From positions 1-58,499 of the IMG/VR virus record IMGVR_UViG_3300027777_000004: a stretch of DNA of 58,499 nucleotides; one strand, written 5' to 3'. The notes under the pieces are model-generated. The model was given only the letters and a program-made list of their open reading frames with translations, was not told the origin of the DNA and made no database searches. The stretch is from a virus (Duplodnaviria > Caudoviricetes). Each line of letters begins with the position of its first letter. Position 1 is the first letter of the stretch. This document shows, piece by piece, positions 20,047 through 45,599 of the stretch. Made by a program: the position numbers and the translations under genes.

Positions 20047-20886
20047 TCATTTGGCCCTGCGAATAGAGGGTGGCCCCTCTGGCATGTCCAACAAAGTTTG
20101 GTCGAGGTAGTGCTTCCAGACCAGCTTGGGATCGGAGTGCGAGAGGTAGTCGCTGGCTTGCCCCGGCGACTTGCGTTGCACATAGGTTGCACAGCTACGC
20201 CGCAGAAACTTCGACGAGCCGCTGAATTTATGCTCTGCCAGAAATCGCTGCCACATGACGAAGGCCCGCCGTCGCGGCACTGCCCATTTGAATAGCGTCC
20301 CATCCGGTGAGTGCTTGAATAGCAGCCCCACCTCTTCGCCCGTCTCCTCTGACACGGGGCGAATGGTCGTCTTGCCCGTCTTTTGCGCCGTGACTGCCAC
20401 GCAATTATTTCTAAAGTTCTTGATGGTTAGGGCGTGAACGTCCGCAAACCTCAACCCAGTATCGAAGGCCAAGCCGATCCACGCCGGGATGACCATCCTC
20501 CGGGTGACATGAGGCACCCGGAGGCTCACGGGTGTCTCGTCCCGTGCAGCCACCGCAATCATCCGCTCCAGCGTCGTCATGCTCCATGCCTCCACAGGGC
20601 GGGCCCTCACCTTGATCCGGTGTAGCCGCAGAGGGGGGCTCTCAGACCACTCGCGGTCAAAAGCCCACTTCCACAACGTCAGAATTTCTCTTCTGATGTT
20701 GTGTTTTGTGGCGGGAGTTAGCTGCATTTCTGCCAGGGCAGTGTTGACCGTCGTCGCGGACAGTTGACGAACTAGATGCAAACCGTATGCTGCGAACTTG
20801 CGGGCGGTTCTGCATAGATTTGCCCTATAGCCGCCGCTTGCTGCGTTCTCCGCAGAATAAGCGACCGCCAGCTCAGTGAGCGTCAT
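20047..20886 (-). CDS. int: Tyrosine recombinase / integrase
   Basis: DTGLRFAD (Arg I), QKTGK (Lys), KFLRR (HxLR box variant), LSHSD...KHY (His, catalytic Tyr); adjacent tRNA fragment; start ATG 20886 inferred. Confidence 0.88.
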   Translation of the reverse strand: MTLTELAVAYSAENAASGGYRANLCRTARKFAAYGLHLVRQLSATTVNTALAEMQLTPATKHNIRREILTLWKWAFDREWSESPPLRLHRIKVRARPVEAWSMTTLERMIAVAARDETPVSLRVPHVTRRMVIPAWIGLAFDTGLRFADVHALTIKNFRNNCVAVTAQKTGKTTIRPVSEETGEEVGLLFKHSPDGTLFKWAVPRRRAFVMWQRFLAEHKFSGSSKFLRRSCATYVQRKSPGQASDYLSHSDPKLVWKHYLDQTLLDMPEGPPSIRRAK

Positions 20887-21049
20887 GGAGGATGATGTGC
20901 CAGTGCCAAGGACGGGAGGAGCGAATTCTGCGCGGACAGAAGAGTGTGTGGACATAGCTTCGTCTTTCGAGGGGACTGACCCCTGCCAAAAAACCTTAGA
21001 CCCACCAAAGACAGGATGTTCCAGCGGAACACGCCCCCTTGGGGGGACG

Positions 21050-21952
21050 GTGGAACAGGGCGGTTTCCATCAGCTTCCCAAGCTGGATGTCGAGGGTTCG
21101 AGTCCCTTCGCCCGCTTTTTGTTTCCATCGCGGGGAAATTTTATTTCCCTGACGGTAGAGGAGTCAAGCCTCTATCACACTTGGCCGGAACCCAGTTGCT
21201 CCGACCTAAAGTTACTGGACGAAAGTCCCGTTGCTTACTACGAGCGCAAGGTCGCACAGACCGCGCCGCCCCGCACTGGCGAGGCTCTGTCCTACGGGAC
21301 ACTTTTGCATTCGTGGGCCGAGATCGGTGACGAGGCATTTTGGGCGCGGGCTGTCATCTGCCCCAACCAGTACGCCACAAGCACTGGCCTGTGGGGCAAG
21401 GTTACCGATGCGTGGGCGAGAGAGTTGCCGCCCGATGCTCTGCCGCTCGCGCCCGCTGACGGGCACAAGCTCAGGGCCCAGACCCTCCAAGTCCTTGCCA
21501 ACCCCGCCGCCCGCAAGCTGCTGACAACGGCCATCGTCAAAGAGGCCAACGTCCGGTGGCGTTGGAACGGACATCTAGTACGGTGCCGGTTCGACGGGGC
21601 GACAGAGGAGTGCTGGTGGGACATCAAGACCACCCGCGACCAGAAGCCGTTGGAGTCTTTTTGGCAGAGCGTCAAGACGTTCCGCTACGACATGCAAGCG
21701 GCCATGTATGAGTCAGCCATGGTGGCATGTGGCTGGGACTACCACCCGCTTGTTTTCATAGCCACATCAACAACGTACCCGTACCACTGCTCTGTGGTGA
21801 CGCTGCCGCCCTCTGTGACTGCCAGAGGGAAGGCCCGCTGTCTGCGGCTCCTCGACGAGCTTGAGACGCGCATCGACTTCGACCACTGGTTGCCCAGCGA
21901 CTACGGGCAAATCCAAGAACTTCCCTGCCCCCGTTTCTTCAAGGAGAGCTAG
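21050..21952 (+). CDS. PD-(D/E)XK exonuclease (RecE/Exo VIII-like); start uncertain
   Basis: YH...SCSDLK, GTLLH, RCRFD...WDIKTT, YDMQAAMY motifs. Confidence 0.8.
   Translation: MEQGGFHQLPKLDVEGSSPFARFLFPSRGNFISLTVEESSLYHTWPEPSCSDLKLLDESPVAYYERKVAQTAPPRTGEALSYGTLLHSWAEIGDEAFWARAVICPNQYATSTGLWGKVTDAWARELPPDALPLAPADGHKLRAQTLQVLANPAARKLLTTAIVKEANVRWRWNGHLVRCRFDGATEECWWDIKTTRDQKPLESFWQSVKTFRYDMQAAMYESAMVACGWDYHPLVFIATSTTYPYHCSVVTLPPSVTARGKARCLRLLDELETRIDFDHWLPSDYGQIQELPCPRFFKES
21068..21116 (+). other. attP: Putative attP core: 3' two-thirds of a tRNA-Gly(CCC)
   Basis: Anticodon arm TCAGC-TTCCCAA-GCTGG, T arm GAGGG-TTCGAGT-CCCTT, acceptor 3' strand CGCCCGC-T; non-canonical 5' half; ~180 bp upstream of int. 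Confidence 0.8.
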
Positions 21953-21954
21953 TT

Positions 21955-22620
21955 ATGGAAATAGGTATTAGACCAGCCCGCAAAATCTTTCTGTATAGGG
22001 AGAAGTCCGACCACACTGGTGAGCTGTATACGGCACTGGCCGCAGCAACAATGGCGTTCCTGCCCGTTGAGAAGGACACTGACGGTGAGTTCGGCAGGTA
22101 CGCCAGCCTGTCATCGCTGCACCGCTCGACCAAATTGCAATGTGCAGAGGTTGGGCTGGTAGTTACTGGCGAGACAACGCCCATCGACGGTGTTATCAAT
22201 CTGGCCGCTACCCTAGTCCACGGCCCATCGGACCAGTGGGTGTGTAGTGTCGTCGGCATCCGCGACAACGGTGACATCCGCAGGACGCTGGCAGACATTG
22301 GCTGGTGGAGAAGGACGCACTACGCCCTGCTCCTCAACCTCACTGCCGAAGCCGAGGGTGAGTCGCTACCGCCGTCCACAACGGTAGAGGGCGAGGACAG
22401 CCAGCCCGCCGCCAGTAATGGCGATTGGCTCATCCAACAACAGCTTGCCGTGGACGCTATTACCACGGCCACGACGACAGCCCGCATCAACAAGATTCTC
22501 GCCCGGGTGCGGGACAAGATCGTCGCCGGGGACATGAACCCTCATGGCCTTGGAGCCCTTGAGGCCATGGCCCAGCAACGCTTCGAGAACATCGCGGCAG
22601 AGAGGGCGGTGCCCGCATGA
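21955..22620 (+). CDS. ERF-like ssDNA-annealing protein (divergent)
   Basis: LYTALAAA...VEKD...YASL, LVHGPSDQW, WWRRTHYALLLNL resemble ERF; directly follows the exonuclease. Confidence 0.6.
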   Translation: MEIGIRPARKIFLYREKSDHTGELYTALAAATMAFLPVEKDTDGEFGRYASLSSLHRSTKLQCAEVGLVVTGETTPIDGVINLAATLVHGPSDQWVCSVVGIRDNGDIRRTLADIGWWRRTHYALLLNLTAEAEGESLPPSTTVEGEDSQPAASNGDWLIQQQLAVDAITTATTTARINKILARVRDKIVAGDMNPHGLGALEAMAQQRFENIAAERAVPA

Positions 22621-23063
22621 TCGACGCCGCTGAGTATATCCAGCTTCGCCAGCGGGTTCTCATCGCCGCCGAGGCTGCGCATCGCATCGCAATAAGCCCA
22701 CATCAAGTGGTGTTCTACGAGCAAGAGGATTACCAGACGGTGTTACATGCAATGGTCTGTCTGAAGGCAGACATTAGGAAATTGGTGTTCGAGTGTCAGA
22801 TTTTACGGGGAGCTAGTCATGGAGGCAACGATGGAGTCGCTGTACGTATTGTGGGAGGAGTGCCAGAGGGAGCCGATCACACGGGTAGCACTACGCAACG
22901 GCTACCCGTCGATGCAAGCCCTGCTATCGGAGTTCCGGCAGGCGGGCCTGACGGGGCGGCGACCAGCCGACCCAAGTCCCGACGAAATACGGGCCGAAAC
23001 CGAAAGCCTGCGGCAGAAGTGGTCAAAGTCAGTCGAGCAAAGCCGGTGGATCGGTCGCGGTAG
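22617..23063 (+). CDS. Hypothetical protein (3' half overprints the next gene)
   Basis: ATGA coupling to the ERF-like gene. Confidence 0.55.
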   Translation: MIDAAEYIQLRQRVLIAAEAAHRIAISPHQVVFYEQEDYQTVLHAMVCLKADIRKLVFECQILRGASHGGNDGVAVRIVGGVPEGADHTGSTTQRLPVDASPAIGVPAGGPDGAATSRPKSRRNTGRNRKPAAEVVKVSRAKPVDRSR

Positions 23064-23067: not shown

Positions 23068-23130
23068 GGATCGGCGTAGTCACTGGAGTGACTAGCACAG
23101 GAGTGCGTGTTCGCAGGGAGGTTGAGCGGT

Positions 23131-24693
23131 ATGAGTGGTCTACTGTTTCCTGAGATGGCGGCGGGGGGGGCGAAAACTCCCCCTCCGCTGCTAACGCTAC
23201 GGCCATACCAGCGGCAGGCTGTAGTCCGAGTCGTCACTGTCCTGAGTGACGCCCGGGCATGTCTAGTGATTGCTGCTACTGGTGTCGGCAAGACAGAGAT
23301 CATCTGTTCGCTCATAGACACACTAGATGGTGCCATGGAGGGTGCCCTAGTGATAAGCCCCCTCAAAGACTTGACTGCGCAGACAGCGGCGCGACTGAGG
23401 TCTAGGGGGGTGGCCTGCGGTGTCGAGCAGGGGACTAACTACAGTGCCGCGCCCGTAACCGTCGCGTGTTACAACAGCCTTCTCTCCCGGGGCCGCTACC
23501 AGAAGTATCTTGGCACGACCAAATTGGTAGTGGTGGATGAAGTCCATCTGAACTACTCACCCCGTAGCCTTGAGATGCTGCGGCAGTTCCGAGAGTGCGG
23601 AGCCCAGATTGTCGGGCTTACCGCCAGCCCCAATCGAACAAAGGGCGATCCGCTCACGGCCTTCTATGGGCCAGTGGCATACGAGTACCACTACCGGCAG
23701 GCGGTGGAGGATGGCTGGCTTGTGCCCGCGCGCGTGTGGATGACGGTTGTCGAGAGCCTCGACCTGTCAGCTTTCAAGAACGCCTTCGGGGATTTTGATC
23801 CGGCCAAACTAGCGGCCATCATGCAGCGGGAGACGGTCGTGCAGGGCATCGCGGAGATGATTGCCCAGCACCATGACGGTCAGCCGTCAGTGGTGTTTGC
23901 TGCGTCCATCCGGCAGGCCCAGCTAATCCAAGAGCTACTGCACCGGCGAGGCATCGTCGCGTCCATCGTCCACTCCAACATGGAGCCAGACGAGCGGGCC
24001 TACAACCTTTATCAGTTTGAGCATGGCGACAACAACATCATCATCAACGTCGGGTGTCTGACTCTAGGCTGGGACTGCCCTGCCGTCCGCAAGCTTTTCT
24101 TGGCCCGACCAACATCCTCGCCAAACACCTATATCCAAATGTTCGGGCGCGGCACCCGGGCACTCCCCGGCGTAGTTGATGGTCTGGCGACCCCTGAGTT
24201 GCGTCGAGCCGCTATCGCTGCGAGTGCCAAGAGCCACTTCGAGGTGTTCGACATCACCGACAGCAGCCGCCGTAACGATCTCTGCACCGCTCTTGTTGTG
24301 CTGCGCCCCGACATCGACGAGGAGCTGGCACGACGAACCCGCAAGAGGGGCGAGCAGGCCCCTAGGTTGCCCGAGGAGGTCGATGCGGTGGTCGAGCAGG
24401 AGAAACTGCGGATGCTGGCCGAGCAGGCTGCACTGGACGCCCTGACGGCTCAGAAGCGGATGCAGTTGACGGCCCGCGCCCAGCTAGGTGTGTACGAGCG
24501 CGACCCGCACGCGCCCGCCGAGGTGGTCGAGAAGGCCAAGAACTACTCATACCTGCCGTTCGGCAAGGCTCACAGAGGCAAGCCACTGACCCAAGTTCCT
24601 TCGGGCTATCTCCAGTGGGCCCTCCGCGAGGCCAGCCTTTCCAAGGGTTTGCGCGAGTCCATCCAGCGCGAGGTCAATCGCCGCCCCCACTAA
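23131..24693 (+). CDS. Superfamily II DNA helicase with C-terminal DUF3820-like domain
   Basis: LRPYQ, ATGVGKT (Walker A), VVDEVH, LTASP, GWDCP, QMFGRGTR; C-terminal PFGK..GKPL..VPSGYLQW. Confidence 0.92.
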   Translation: MSGLLFPEMAAGGAKTPPPLLTLRPYQRQAVVRVVTVLSDARACLVIAATGVGKTEIICSLIDTLDGAMEGALVISPLKDLTAQTAARLRSRGVACGVEQGTNYSAAPVTVACYNSLLSRGRYQKYLGTTKLVVVDEVHLNYSPRSLEMLRQFRECGAQIVGLTASPNRTKGDPLTAFYGPVAYEYHYRQAVEDGWLVPARVWMTVVESLDLSAFKNAFGDFDPAKLAAIMQRETVVQGIAEMIAQHHDGQPSVVFAASIRQAQLIQELLHRRGIVASIVHSNMEPDERAYNLYQFEHGDNNIIINVGCLTLGWDCPAVRKLFLARPTSSPNTYIQMFGRGTRALPGVVDGLATPELRRAAIAASAKSHFEVFDITDSSRRNDLCTALVVLRPDIDEELARRTRKRGEQAPRLPEEVDAVVEQEKLRMLAEQAALDALTAQKRMQLTARAQLGVYERDPHAPAEVVEKAKNYSYLPFGKAHRGKPLTQVPSGYLQWALREASLSKGLRESIQREVNRRPH

Positions 24694-31095: not shown

Positions 31096-31604
31096 CACGG
31101 CTCACCGCCGAACAGCAGCAGCTAGCAGAAGACGCAATCAGATATTGCGGGCCAGTGATAGCGCAATTCCTCAAGGTCAACGATGACCTAAAGAGAGCGG
31201 CCCGCAGGGTAGACCTAGCCAGCACTGCCATGTACGCGGTGTGCTTGGCGGCAACTACCTATGACGCAGAGAAGTCTAAGCCCTCTACGTATTTCAGTAT
31301 CGCCATTCGGCATGCACTGATACGGGCAGTGCTGCGGCAGCAGAAGCTCGACGGCAGATACATAGCAGTGGAGTCCCTGCTAGAGCCATCGCCCAACGTC
31401 CACCGCACACGGCAGGAGATGCGTGCGCTCAAGGCCCTCAAGAGTCTCTCGGCCTATGATAAGACGCTGCTCGAAGACCGGCTCATCGAAGCCGTTACCC
31501 TAGAACAACTGGGCCTAGAGCAACGACTTGATCCCCGCACCGTAGCCAAGAGGGTATCATCGGCCATCGACAAGCTACGCCGTGCGGAGGACAATCTCCC
31601 CTGA
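31092..31604 (+). CDS. Sigma-70-family RNA polymerase sigma factor
   Basis: Region 2 (DLASTAMYAVCLAATTYDAEKSKPSTYFSIAIRH) and region 4 HTH (LSAYDKTLL...TLEQLG...TVAKRVSSAIDKLR). Confidence 0.78.
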   Translation: MTRLTAEQQQLAEDAIRYCGPVIAQFLKVNDDLKRAARRVDLASTAMYAVCLAATTYDAEKSKPSTYFSIAIRHALIRAVLRQQKLDGRYIAVESLLEPSPNVHRTRQEMRALKALKSLSAYDKTLLEDRLIEAVTLEQLGLEQRLDPRTVAKRVSSAIDKLRRAEDNLP

Positions 31605-32363
31605 CTTCACGGCCTTGATGAACTGCTTGTAGTTGGGAATCTTCGGGTAGCCTGCCTGCCTAGCAAGCAACGCCCACTTCACTTGGCTGGGCGTTGGCAA
31701 GTCCCGCTTGCAGATGATCTCCTTCTGGTGGAATGTCCATAGAGATAGGTTGTCGAGGCTCATCCCTTTGTCCCGCTGATACTTCAGCAACTCCACCATC
31801 TCCCGCTCGGCCTTGTCTATCCGGTAATACTGGTTGGGCCTCTCGCCCCTCTTCTTCCAGCCAATCGGACAGCCATGGGAGTATGGCCTGCCCTGTGACT
31901 TGCGCAGGGCAATGGTTTCATTCGTCCGTTCGCGGGTGAACTCCCTCTCTAGTTCCGATACCGCCAGAAGTATCTGCTTAAAGAACTTGCCCAGCGCGGT
32001 GCTGGTATCTATTTGCAAGTCCATGCTGTGGAACACCACGCCCCGGGCACCGAACATATCCATGGTGCCGATGCCATCTTTGAGGGAACGGAATGCCCTG
32101 TCCAGCTTCGAGCAAACCACATGATCCCCGGGCTGGGCAAGAGCATACACCTGCCGCCCATACTCCCGTTCTGTGAAAGGCTTCTTACCAGATTGAGCCT
32201 TGTCATAGAACCAACCGCCCCACTGTACGCCCTTGTCCCGCAGGGTTCGCTCCCAATATCCATAGCAGCGATGTTCTTGTACCTCTTGGGTTAGCTCCTG
32301 CTTGGCAGTGGAATGCCGCCCATACCCATAACACACGGGGGGCCGACCATTAGGTGTCGCCAT
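31575..32363 (-). CDS. Serine recombinase (resolvase/invertase family) with C-terminal extension
   Basis: YGYGRHST (catalytic Ser), SG, PGD.VV.SKLDRAFR, DTSTALGK, ELEREFTRERT; GGAGG RBS. Confidence 0.92.
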   Translation of the reverse strand: MATPNGRPPVCYGYGRHSTAKQELTQEVQEHRCYGYWERTLRDKGVQWGGWFYDKAQSGKKPFTEREYGRQVYALAQPGDHVVCSKLDRAFRSLKDGIGTMDMFGARGVVFHSMDLQIDTSTALGKFFKQILLAVSELEREFTRERTNETIALRKSQGRPYSHGCPIGWKKRGERPNQYYRIDKAEREMVELLKYQRDKGMSLDNLSLWTFHQKEIICKRDLPTPSQVKWALLARQAGYPKIPNYKQFIKAVKSGEIVLRTA

Positions 32364-32790
32364 CAAAGCCACCATCCTCCCCGGTGTCATCGTCAAGCAG
32401 ATAGCCGCCGCCCTGCCGCGCATCCCAGATGCAGTTATGGATCGTATCGGCCCAAGCTATGTCAATGAACATACTCATAACACTCAGGGCGATAGTGCGC
32501 TCGACCACCCAATGCTCTTCCTCCCACTCGCCGTCGGCCATAGTCTCTAGGTCTAGGTAGACCTCCTTGCAGACCTCAACGAACTCCGCGTCTTTGTCTT
32601 GAGCGGCGACAGCCGCCCGAGTTTCTATAGACGCGGAGATATGAATAGGCTTCGCAGTTGGGTCAGCTTCACGCAGTGTTCCCAAGAACTCGAACGCCGT
32701 CTTGCCTGCCGATGCAGGTAGTTCATAGCCCCCATCTGTCTCAATGATGTCATTGAAAATCCCCACTAGAGCCGCGTCATACCATGCCAT
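32350..32790 (-). CDS. Hypothetical acidic protein
   Basis: GGAGG RBS; D/E-rich. Confidence 0.6.
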   Translation of the reverse strand: MAWYDAALVGIFNDIIETDGGYELPASAGKTAFEFLGTLREADPTAKPIHISASIETRAAVAAQDKDAEFVEVCKEVYLDLETMADGEWEEEHWVVERTIALSVMSMFIDIAWADTIHNCIWDARQGGGYLLDDDTGEDGGFDGDT

Positions 32791-37307: not shown

Positions 37308-38735
37308 TCAGCCTGCATAGCCGCCTCCATTCCGGTACAGATGGACAACCTTGGCCCATGGTGGTGTGGGATAGCCCTTGCATTCCTCAGTAAGTGCGAT
37401 GATGACCCTCGCCCTCGGCTTGGCACACCATCCCGTTTCACCATCGGTCAGCACGACAATCGCATCGGGCCGATCCTCTTTGTCCACCGTCGTTACTGCC
37501 AGACCCATGTCAGTACCGCCGCCGCCCTGCCAGACAAAGTTCTTGAGGCTTTGAACCTCCTTGCGGGCCTGCATTCTGGCATCGAAGCAGGTTACTTTCG
37601 GACGCTGCACCTGCCGTAATCCTGCGGCTAGTGCAACAAGTGCCCGCTGAATGTTGTCACCGCTGGACATGCTGCCAGAAGTGTCAACGATGATCGAACA
37701 CTGAGGGGATACCCTTGTCACGCCCCGTTTACGGGGGCCATCGGGGTCTTGCCGACGAGACAGCTTCTTATAGGTCAGCTCATCCGTTCCGATGGGGCTG
37801 GCAACAGACCTCGCAGCAAACGTCCTGAGTTGCTGAAAGGGGTCAGGCTGGGGACGAAGACGGGCAGCGATAGCTGCCGCCAACGTACCTGCCCCTCTGC
37901 CGGGAGTAGATTGAATGGCCTTCTCAATCTCCTCCAACTGCTGCACCTGACGAGCAATGTCGCCCATCTTGCACGGCTTCTCCCATGGTTTGGGCACACC
38001 GTCAGACGCACTGCCCTCCATGTCGGGGTCATTGTTCGGCCCCTTGGAATCGTTGTCTGGCTGGTCATCACCACTGCCAGTGCCGCCGCCAGACTTCTTC
38101 TTCTTTTGGGGCCCAGGCTGGCCATCATCTCCCGTACCATCAGACCCACCATCGTCGCCGTCGTCTCCGTCCTCCCCCTCTTGCTCATCCTCTGCCTCGG
38201 GGGCCTTCTTCTTGCGGAAGTAGGGGGCAAGCAGCCCGACATAGGCTTCCGTTGTCAAGCCGGAACGCACCATTGGGATGTCCGCAAACGGGCACTCGAA
38301 GTCTGGCAGATGGCTAGACAGTTGGAGTGCATCGTCAGGGAGTGTGGTGTCACGGGCCAGCAGTTGATTAACTGCTAGGTCTGCGGCAATGTTCCACAGT
38401 TTGCACTGGTCTTCAGTGGGCATGCCACCCATCCAATCCTCTCGCCGCTTGGCATGAGAGAGGGCCAGATGGTAGACCTCATGAATCATGATCGCAGCCA
38501 AGTCAGCTTTGGAGCGGGTGCTACACCGCTCTTCGTTGACATAGAGCCTGCCCACCTTGTCCACGGCCATGACCGGGACTTCGGCAGTTATGATTACGGG
38601 CATACCAACAAGCGTCCGGTAGAAGTAGGGGCAGATTGCCCCTGCCAACTTGCGGGCAGCATAGAGCTTCTTACGAATGTCACTGATGGGCTTTCGCCCC
38701 TTGGGAATCGGAAGGATCGAAGTCATGGGTATCAA
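37308..38735 (-). CDS. Metallopeptidase-like (HExxH) + VWA domain protein (DUF2201-like)
   Basis: IHEVYH, WNIAADLAVN, acidic linker, VDTSGSMS, GGGTD, VLTDGE (MIDAS). Confidence 0.85.
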   Translation of the reverse strand: MIPMTSILPIPKGRKPISDIRKKLYAARKLAGAICPYFYRTLVGMPVIITAEVPVMAVDKVGRLYVNEERCSTRSKADLAAIMIHEVYHLALSHAKRREDWMGGMPTEDQCKLWNIAADLAVNQLLARDTTLPDDALQLSSHLPDFECPFADIPMVRSGLTTEAYVGLLAPYFRKKKAPEAEDEQEGEDGDDGDDGGSDGTGDDGQPGPQKKKKSGGGTGSGDDQPDNDSKGPNNDPDMEGSASDGVPKPWEKPCKMGDIARQVQQLEEIEKAIQSTPGRGAGTLAAAIAARLRPQPDPFQQLRTFAARSVASPIGTDELTYKKLSRRQDPDGPRKRGVTRVSPQCSIIVDTSGSMSSGDNIQRALVALAAGLRQVQRPKVTCFDARMQARKEVQSLKNFVWQGGGGTDMGLAVTTVDKEDRPDAIVVLTDGETGWCAKPRARVIIALTEECKGYPTPPWAKVVHLYRNGGGYAG

Positions 38736-45309: not shown

Positions 45310-45599
45310 GCGATGACAACTTTTACGATCCCAAGCCCCCTACGCTGGAGGAATGTGCGCGGGTAGTTAAATCCTTGACTCTGGGCATAGCCTTTCTGAA
45401 GCGGGAAAGCCTGCGTAGCTCAATGGCAGAGCAGCAGTTTTGTAAACTGCCGGTTGCTGGTTCAAGTCCAGCCGTAGGCTCTTTGACCCCCGAGGAGCGG
45501 GAAGCGATTCAATGGTTTTCGCAGTTGTCATATGGCGAGGGTGGAAGAGTGCCAGACTACGCCGCCACCCTCCGATCCCTACTAGAGAGGCTGAAATGA
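45306..45599 (+). CDS. Hypothetical protein hosting a tRNA gene
   Basis: ATGA coupling at both ends; GAGG RBS; C-terminal LTPEEREAI...AATLRSLLERLK motif. Confidence 0.55.
   Translation: MSDDNFYDPKPPTLEECARVVKSLTLGIAFLKRESLRSSMAEQQFCKLPVAGSSPAVGSLTPEEREAIQWFSQLSYGEGGRVPDYAATLRSLLERLK
45409..45480 (+). tRNA. tRNA-Thr(TGT), no encoded CCA
   Basis: GCCTGCG/CGTAGGC acceptor, GCTC-AATGGCA-GAGC D arm, GCAGT-TTTGTAA-ACTGC anticodon arm, GCTGG-TTCAAGT-CCAGC T arm. Confidence 0.92.

Follow-up and report, generated by a model that had tools for sequence, protein, structure and literature searches.

Can the attachment site of a phage lie inside the coding sequence of its first early gene, and what would integration then do to that gene? 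This question is raised by the virus record IMGVR_UViG_3300027777_000004 (Caudoviricetes), which is complete at 58,499 bases, carries direct terminal repeats and is called the window here. In it, a fragment of a tRNA-Gly(CCC) gene lies within the open reading frame (ORF) of a RecE-like exonuclease, which is divergent from, and adjoins, the gene of a tyrosine integrase (int). An initial annotation had read this fragment as the phage attachment site (attP) and had suggested that integration might act as a switch for the genes behind it. Comparison of the window with related loci gives good support, on sequence grounds, to the anatomical part of this reading, namely the location of attP within the first early gene's ORF, and it makes an integration-dependent switch plausible. 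We favor, as probable but well short of certain, the account that the attP core is located in the 5' coding part of the exonuclease gene, that integration splits the gene, and that the nuclease can be produced only from the excised genome.

A tRNA-Gly fragment with the features of an attP core

ARAGORN reported a 76-nucleotide (nt) tRNA-Gly(ccc) at 21042-21117. The Rfam score of this tRNA-like stretch was 25.9 bits compared with a gathering score of 29, and the D arm was absent, which identifies the stretch as the 3' fragment of a tRNA. In addition, its 5' acceptor strand, as read from the sequence, pairs poorly. The part that fits the tRNA model is 21069..21116 on the plus strand, equivalent to positions 26-73 of tRNA-Gly(CCC). 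It spans the anticodon arm, the variable loop, the T arm, the 3' acceptor strand and the discriminator, and it makes up 16 codons of the exonuclease ORF.

The window was compared with three close relatives whose exonucleases are 84-88% identical to its own, one viral contig (L003) and two metagenome contigs (L008 and L009). All 48 nt of 21069-21116 are identical in the window, L003 and L009, and the flanks, chiefly the left-hand DNA, can hardly be aligned. The corresponding core of L008 carries four base differences, which make two compensatory pairs in the T stem, showing that the core follows tRNA structure and not a need of the protein. ARAGORN found no tRNA in L003, L008 or L009, and the apparent 5' tRNA half of the window is thus unconserved. 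Indeed, the identity between the window and its relatives sets in precisely with the 5' strand of the anticodon stem. At tRNA integration sites, identity blocks of this kind mark a crossover in the anticodon loop. From the start of the identity block, we propose that the crossover segment would be the anticodon loop at 21075..21081 (plus strand).

The gene beside the fragment (20047..20886, minus strand) encodes a predicted tyrosine integrase of 279 amino acids (aa). Met 1 is invariant in the integrase family alignment, which includes 10 aligned relatives, and the int start was placed at 20886 because this Met maps there; the R, H and Y columns near the C-terminus are conserved as well. The protein scored 24.7 bits against PF00589, just under the cut-off of 27.1, and aligned to positions 165-434 of the 611-position profile phrog_1 (integrase) at 3e-14. 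A search of the protein against isolated phages gave no match. The window integrase looks like a short enzyme of the arm-less, or core-only, type. Taken together, 21069-21116 appears to serve a short tyrosine integrase as its attP common core, the target of the enzyme being a host tRNA-Gly(CCC) gene, and integration would be expected to occur at this core.

The exonuclease frame runs through the core

The right-hand part of the ORF (21173..21952, plus strand) encodes a RecE-like PD-(D/E)XK exonuclease domain (DUF3799). It scored 47.7 bits against PF12684 (cut-off 26), matched phrog_412 (exonuclease VIII) at 5e-36, and its Foldseek match was E. coli RecE (3h4r, E 3.4e-13, TM 0.85 over the target). 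The D, D-x-K and Q...Y columns, which we take to be the catalytic motifs, are invariant or nearly so in the exonuclease family alignments. The initial annotation had described this frame as free of stops from 20876, the position of the first listed start (GTG), through the fragment, and the frame proved to be open even from 20861, to 21952. It had also found neither ATG nor GTG between attP and the conserved YH motif (codons at 21173). The codons were re-read and this holds: between the end of the core at 21116 and YH, the only start-like codons in frame are TTG 21119, ATT 21143 and CTG 21149. L003 and L009 contain no ATG, GTG or TTG in this interval.

In the window, L003, L008 and L009 alike, 69-98 codons upstream of the core are free of stops in the exonuclease frame, compared with one to three stops in each of the other two plus-strand frames of this leader, again in 4/4 sequences. 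Dinucleotide shuffles kept the frame open in 13-16% of the trials per sequence (P 0.13-0.16 each). All four sequences have an in-frame ATG inside a CATG that overlaps the int start, and the distance from this ATG to the core, 62, 53, 59 and 61 codons in the four sequences, is always in phase. The best pair of Shine-Dalgarno (SD) sequence and start in the window is GGAGGA, followed after four bases by the in-frame GTG 20897 (20887..20899, plus strand). L003 similarly has GGAGGA, 7 nt, and then an in-frame GTG, and L008 and L009 have AAGGA five bases ahead of the ATG in CATG. Because the SD-start pairs are found there and GTG 21050 is unconserved, the likelier start of the window ORF would be ATG 20885 or GTG 20897 (20885-20899), abutting the int start. 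The full exonuclease ORF as proposed is 20885..21952 (plus strand), with 355 codons from ATG 20885 and GTG 20897 as the alternative start.

Two further codons were considered as starts and rejected. GTG 21050, to which the initial annotation had drawn attention, is in frame and preceded by a run of G, as described, but it is an improper candidate for a start, the aligned codon being ATT in L003 and no start being present there in L008 or L009. TTG 21119 is unconserved as well: it is replaced by TTA in L008 and kept by no close relative.

The leader defined by these starts (20888..21068, plus strand) comprises ~60 poorly conserved codons, stop-free in 4/4 close relatives. It is predicted to be disordered, with an AlphaFold pLDDT (predicted local distance difference test) score below 50 for residues 1-74, and it probably also holds the int promoter on the opposite strand. 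Between the core and the nuclease domain lies a linker of 18 codons (21117..21172, plus strand), which contains TTG 21119, a hairpin at 21133-21149, ATT 21143 and CTG 21149. Between the window and L008, the changes in the linker ahead of the CTG are mostly synonymous (CGG/AGA for Arg, TTT/TTC, TTG/TTA and AAT/AAC). Furthermore, in the AlphaFold model the segment FISLT (residues 86-90), which begins before CTG 21149, forms a strand of the folded domain. Synonymous change and a strand ahead of the CTG together indicate that translation must enter from the core or from upstream of it.

tRNA fragments are translated in related phages

A protein search with the 355-aa ORF returned 26 homologues at E 1e-20 or better, 24 of them with a complete N-terminus. 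Alignment of these N-termini, a check that the initial annotation had proposed, was informative: a translated tRNA 3' half precedes YH in 23 of the 24. Among different phages, each of the three frames is used to read the Gly(CCC) core. In one homologue, P0002, the frame equals that of the window on both sides of the core and differs within the core, which implies two compensating shifts. Fragments with a CAT anticodon are read in both of their stop-free frames, and the His fragment has, as read from the fragment itself, a single stop-free frame, which is the one used. Another homologue, P0004 (286 aa, 88% identical, on contigs of up to 57.5 kb), has as its N-terminus a degenerate, deleted-looking remnant of the Gly core with a Met inside the remnant. 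As judged from this sequence, the P0004 lineage may have lost attP and regained a proximal start.

A scan of viral contigs with the integrase alignment gave 47 loci. The exonuclease gene was divergent and adjoined int in 36 of the 47 loci; the other 11 had neither a convincing tRNA arm nor an exonuclease within 3 kb. A recognisable fragment, as defined by a test for both the T arm and the anticodon arm, was present in 22 of the 36: one Gly(CCC), 12 CAT, seven His(GTG) and two Val(GAC). Some of these lie on contigs that a scan of viral contigs for the exonuclease also yielded, and three pairs among them are duplicated or nearly so. In each of these 22 loci the frame was open across the fragment, with an in-frame ATG, GTG or TTG upstream. 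With the open frame also seen in 4/4 close sequences and upstream SD and ATG pairs in several clades, the placement of the tRNA-Gly fragment inside the exonuclease ORF, as initially annotated, was borne out. Homologues that have the fragment and start downstream of it are not the pattern, as 20 of the 22 loci had no canonical start between the fragment and the start of exonuclease homology. The integrases of the loci that keep the arrangement are only 28-50% identical to that of the window.

Upstream starts were also found in two sister clades. Several loci of the CAT clade (L171, L173, L175/L179, L177 and L178) have an AAGGAG-like SD and an ATG upstream of the fragment, a few codons after an in-frame stop. 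The His clade has a window-like layout, in which a GGAGG-type SD lies 6-8 nt ahead of an ATG within a few bases of the int start (7/7 loci), and its leaders extend for 36-55 codons after the ATG. Leaders of both the His and the CAT clade show the low guanine-cytosine (GC) content at codon position 2 that is typical of coding sequence. A divergent integrase-like ORF of ~300 aa was present in 8/8 fragment-bearing loci tested. The relatives L169, L170 and L174 have no integrase within ~3 kb upstream and no fragment, and the start of their exonucleases precedes YH by 12-16 codons.

A more distant exonuclease subfamily, found in L210-L224 (integrases 24-30% identical), is also divergent beside a related integrase. 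When nine loci whose exonucleases are more distant were scanned with Rfam, the one tRNA-like match was in L203, and L210-L224 gave none. The fragment rule may fail for L210-L224, or those phages may use sites other than tRNA genes. The match in L203 (2753-2839, int strand) is a nearly full-length tRNA-like element of 87 nt, which scored 28.2 bits, just under the Rfam threshold, and lies antisense in the open exonuclease leader; the L203 integrase may be directed to the opposite side of a long-arm tRNA.

Start codons are depleted between the fragment and the nuclease domain

In-frame start codons were counted in 20 related loci, leaving out L190 and L194, in which the motif pattern was unmatched, and L183, L195 and L196, which are duplicates or near-duplicates. 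ATG, GTG and TTG accounted for 3 of 339 linker codons compared with 223 of 5170 body codons (binomial P 0.0002, with no correction for shared ancestry) and for 24 of 707 leader codons; since the loci do share ancestry, these counts and the P values given here overstate their independence. Val was encoded by GTG in 2/29 cases in the linkers and in 81/314 cases in the bodies (Fisher p 0.022), and Met was found at 0/339 linker codons compared with 75/5170 body codons. The depletion would fit selection against starts that permit translation in the attL arrangement, in which the exonuclease body is joined to host DNA.

The linker also contains the hairpin near ATT and CTG that had been noticed initially. 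This hairpin is real, lies at 21133-21149, and has been preserved through compensatory changes in L003, L008 and L009. At the protein level, the same changes replace Ile by Val and exchange synonymous codons for Asn. A second small hairpin is present just after the core (21155-21175). In loci of the CAT and His clades, the codons around YH are covered by a hairpin that covaries. The post-core hairpins may serve as an insulator against read-through from the tRNA promoter, as a terminator or as a protein binding site.

A model in which integration splits the exonuclease gene

In the account that we favor, translation would start beside the divergent int start, at ATG 20885 or GTG 20897, and the ribosome would read ~60 unconstrained codons, 16 codons of the tRNA fragment and 18 linker codons before it reaches the nuclease domain. 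With attP placed after the start codon and ahead of the gene body, the exonuclease gene should be split by integration; it would be whole in the phage genome while this is circular or replicating. Site-specific integration of the usual geometry would produce an attL in which the core and the exonuclease body are preceded by host DNA and the tRNA 5' half. At attR, the core and the adjoining host DNA would follow int, the divergent control region, and the start and leader of the exonuclease. Such a prophage would have a start-less nuclease body directly behind the rebuilt host tRNA and no translatable exonuclease gene. Its early block would be cut off from the promoter, and excision would restore both start and promoter. 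Transcription of the block behind the exonuclease would probably likewise be limited to the excised genome. The position of the promoter and the silencing of the exonuclease in lysogens are points that we infer. A consensus scan found two promoter-like sites compared with 0.5 expected, which is weak evidence. One, a candidate exonuclease promoter with 9/12 consensus matches, lies on the plus strand inside int (20764..20791), ~95 nt before ATG 20885. The other lies on the minus strand to the right of the core (21138..21167; 10/12 matches); transcription from it, if it is real, would cross the core in the direction of int, but it is not evidently kept in relatives and remains a weak lead.

More tentatively, at a level that falls a little short of probable, the model may hold for a broad clade of uncultivated temperate phages, in which the attachment site would lie between the start codon and the body of the gene, excision would rebuild the gene, downstream starts would have been purged, and any of at least four kinds of tRNA would be translated in a stop-free frame.

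Several observations on the locus, together with the outcome of the host and junction searches, weigh against the model. The start codon is not fixed, being ATG in L008 and L009 and probably GTG in the window and L003. The window leader is flat in GC by codon position (0.58/0.55/0.56 compared with 0.59/0.49/0.69 in phage genes) and barely conserved among relatives, so that in the subclade of the window it looks like intergenic DNA without stops. The Erf-like gene at 21955 has its own SD and ATG, and loss of the exonuclease start alone would therefore not silence the block. The promoter calls are consensus matches only, and the shared ancestry of the loci bears on the start-codon counts, as stated above. 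The initial annotation had looked to the core to name the host and to lead to the attL and attR junctions, and neither was achieved: the exact 48-mer core had no match in bacterial genomes sampled at one per species; 401 cyanobacterial genomes, to which this result is confined, contained no core match at up to three mismatches; and no attL or attR junction was seen in the phage loci collected or in unitigs, Logan unitigs being unable to bridge a 47-nt repeat. Similarly, none of the loci examined had a whole tRNA upstream of the exonuclease.

The same searches provided information on possible target genes. The 22-mer of the anticodon arm occurs in at least 120 loci from many phyla. Among the matches listed, the nearest T-arm/acceptor tails differ by two mismatches, in a Gemmatimonadetes and a Zixibacteria metagenome-assembled genome (MAG), and the core variant of L008 is one mismatch away from a Thermosynechococcaceae MAG. 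Seven freshwater or lake metagenomes contain part of the window, with no RNA dataset among the matching runs, and the phage contigs in metagenomes break inside the core. Many unitigs cover 21068-21122 alone, some of them without mismatch at a depth of 50-110 compared with a phage depth of 4-14. The loose ends of these core-only unitigs resemble a tRNA 5' half on one side and CCA or a T-rich trailer on the other. The depth of the mismatch-free unitigs indicates that a tRNA-Gly gene matching the core is abundant in the same samples. Unitigs from runs X1-X4 that share the core, with loose ends at 21073, 21074, 21105, 21106 and 21114, run on into neither a tRNA nor this phage; this tRNA-Gly(CCC) site may also serve other mobile elements of these lakes.

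Alternative explanations for the open frame

The leader and the tRNA-coded peptide, both unconstrained and disordered, would also be expected if the ORF spans attP and is translated as a neutral by-product. An int-attP module with its own start would then have been inserted into a tolerant, disordered N-terminus and would have no selected regulatory role. Such an origin is in line with the presence of four tRNA types in various frames, which suggests module swapping, and with the ribosome sites that the downstream genes keep for themselves. We nevertheless consider it unlikely, because the depletion of start-like codons is specific to the stretch from the fragment to the domain, and because the arrangement has been retained across integrases that share only 28-50% identity with that of the window. 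Furthermore, the fragment lies upstream of the start in none of the loci with a recognisable fragment, and the P0004-type relative with its degenerate core has regained a proximal Met.

Slightly less likely again is that the exonuclease starts downstream of attP, at CTG 21149, ATT 21143 or TTG 21119, possibly modulated by the hairpin, and that the upstream frame is untranslated. Integration would then remove at most a promoter. The CTG, whose retention also counts against our model, is kept in 4/4 sequences (the window, L003, L008 and L009), 8 codons before YH, and the starts of homologues fall 5-16 codons before YH, a range that includes it. The covariation of the hairpin over ATT and CTG, and a leader that is predicted to be disordered and lacks a codon-position GC signature, agree with such a start. 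However, no SD is found ahead of the CTG in L003 or L009, and TTG 21119 and ATT 21143 are unconserved. Translation from upstream is further indicated by the synonymous changes ahead of the CTG, such as CGG/AGA for Arg, by the FISLT strand, which begins before the CTG and belongs to the predicted fold, and by P0002, in which the frame is restored on both sides of the core. Moreover, sister clades have an unambiguous SD and ATG upstream of their fragments and none after, and the four open frames are independent, with a shuffle probability of ~0.15 each. Of the hairpin-gated non-canonical start that had been suggested initially, the conserved hairpin and the retained CTG thus stand, but a start there is disfavoured by the missing SD in L003 and L009 and by the upstream starts of the sister clades.

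It is very improbable that 21042-21117 is a working phage tRNA-Gly gene with an incidental ORF overlap, as might be supposed from the 76-nt ARAGORN call and from the tRNA-Thr that the phage also encodes (45409-45481), given an Rfam score under the gathering score, the lack of a D arm, a 5' half that is unconserved and blank to ARAGORN in L003, L008 and L009, and identity with relatives that starts exactly at the anticodon stem.

Gene neighbourhood of the exonuclease

The split-gene model concerns the first gene of a plus-strand block. The exonuclease gene is followed by a gene for an Erf-like annealing protein (21955..22620; phrog_2324, 9e-6), a 148-aa ORF (22617..23063) and a helicase gene (23107..24693; phrog_16, 4.6e-64; ResIII and Helicase_C domains), with the 148-aa ORF located between the Erf-like gene and the helicase. 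The order exonuclease, Erf-like protein and helicase recurs in related loci. Elsewhere, the window encodes a second site-specific recombinase, a serine recombinase/resolvase of 282 aa (31575-32423, minus strand; PF00239, 99.5 bits), which may serve in dimer resolution, in inversion or as a second route of integration. ARAGORN called the phage tRNA-Thr(TGT) at 45409-45481 (plus strand), and a DUF2201 putative metallopeptidase with a VWA-like domain (37308-38735, minus strand) lies in a block of minus-strand genes at ~31.5-42.5 kb.

Comparison with known systems

Where attP lies beside int, the tRNA 3' fragment is usually located in intergenic DNA. The locus described here shares with an ordinary tyrosine-integrase attP the neighbouring int and a tRNA 3' fragment by which the tRNA would be rebuilt when the phage integrates. 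The difference is in the position of the fragment: consistently across the clade, it separates the start codon of a gene from the conserved domain. In the literature covered, from which subscription journals and supplementary files were outside scope, attP sites within genes were found only for repressors, for integrases and in filamentous phages, and none at the 5' end of an exonuclease or early gene. What we describe would combine known ideas about coupling to integration and excision and apply them to a site that is new, an early recombination gene's 5' end, in a clade with at least four tRNA targets.

If the model is correct, the phage would have a repressor-independent, purely topological means of keeping early recombination functions off in the lysogen and on after excision. 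It would also mean that fragments of tRNA genes are routinely translated as segments of protein, in different frames. For annotation, such a locus is a difficult case, as gene callers, tRNA finders and predictors of attachment sites all mishandle it. The small, seemingly core-only integrases with their varied tRNA targets may prove to be useful tools.

Among phages, the nearest parallel is integration-dependent immunity. Excerpts of PMC9262239 place attP inside the repressor gene's 3' end in BPs and Brujita (mycobacteriophage clusters G, N and P). As the available parts of that source and of 10.64898/2026.10.29.762952 describe, integration deprives the repressor of its 3' end and hence of its degradation tag, so that it becomes active, and a core-only attachment site keeps the burden on the coding sequence small. 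The corynephage CyranoPS shows integration-dependent immunity, and its integrase also loses its promoter on integration, according to an excerpt of 10.64898/2026.10.29.762952. As far as these portions go, the window is similar to BPs and CyranoPS in having, beside a tyrosine integrase, an attP that is a tRNA 3' fragment in a phage coding region, where integration would alter a gene product. In contrast to the BPs type, the split gene is a RecE-like exonuclease divergent from int, and the end that would be lost is the 5' end with the start and the promoter side, so that the gene should be switched off. Furthermore, no repressor is involved, and the window Int ends in ...IRRAK, where no tag of the LAA kind is seen. 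Split reading frames are also known from archaeal viruses: the accessible part of PMC7253208 describes the recombination site of SSV-type 'suicidal' integrases within an ORF that is split by integration. There the integrase ORF itself is split, whereas here int would remain intact and a neighbouring gene would be split.

A second parallel is Tn916, in which, as the available text of PMC11658703 describes, genes for DNA processing and conjugation are expressed only after circularisation joins them to a promoter, and a terminator insulates these genes from host read-through; an RNA antiterminator is also required. As in Tn916, to the extent covered by that text, the promoter and the genes that it drives would lie at opposite ends of the integrated element and be joined in the excised circle. 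Unlike in Tn916, where the joint is non-coding, the joint here lies inside an ORF, so that the start codon too would be separated; the element is a phage that targets tRNA genes, and a possible insulator is the hairpin after the core. If the model holds, this locus would take its place beside integration-dependent immunity and the circle-dependent transcription of Tn916, and it would differ from both in the split of a coding 5' end.

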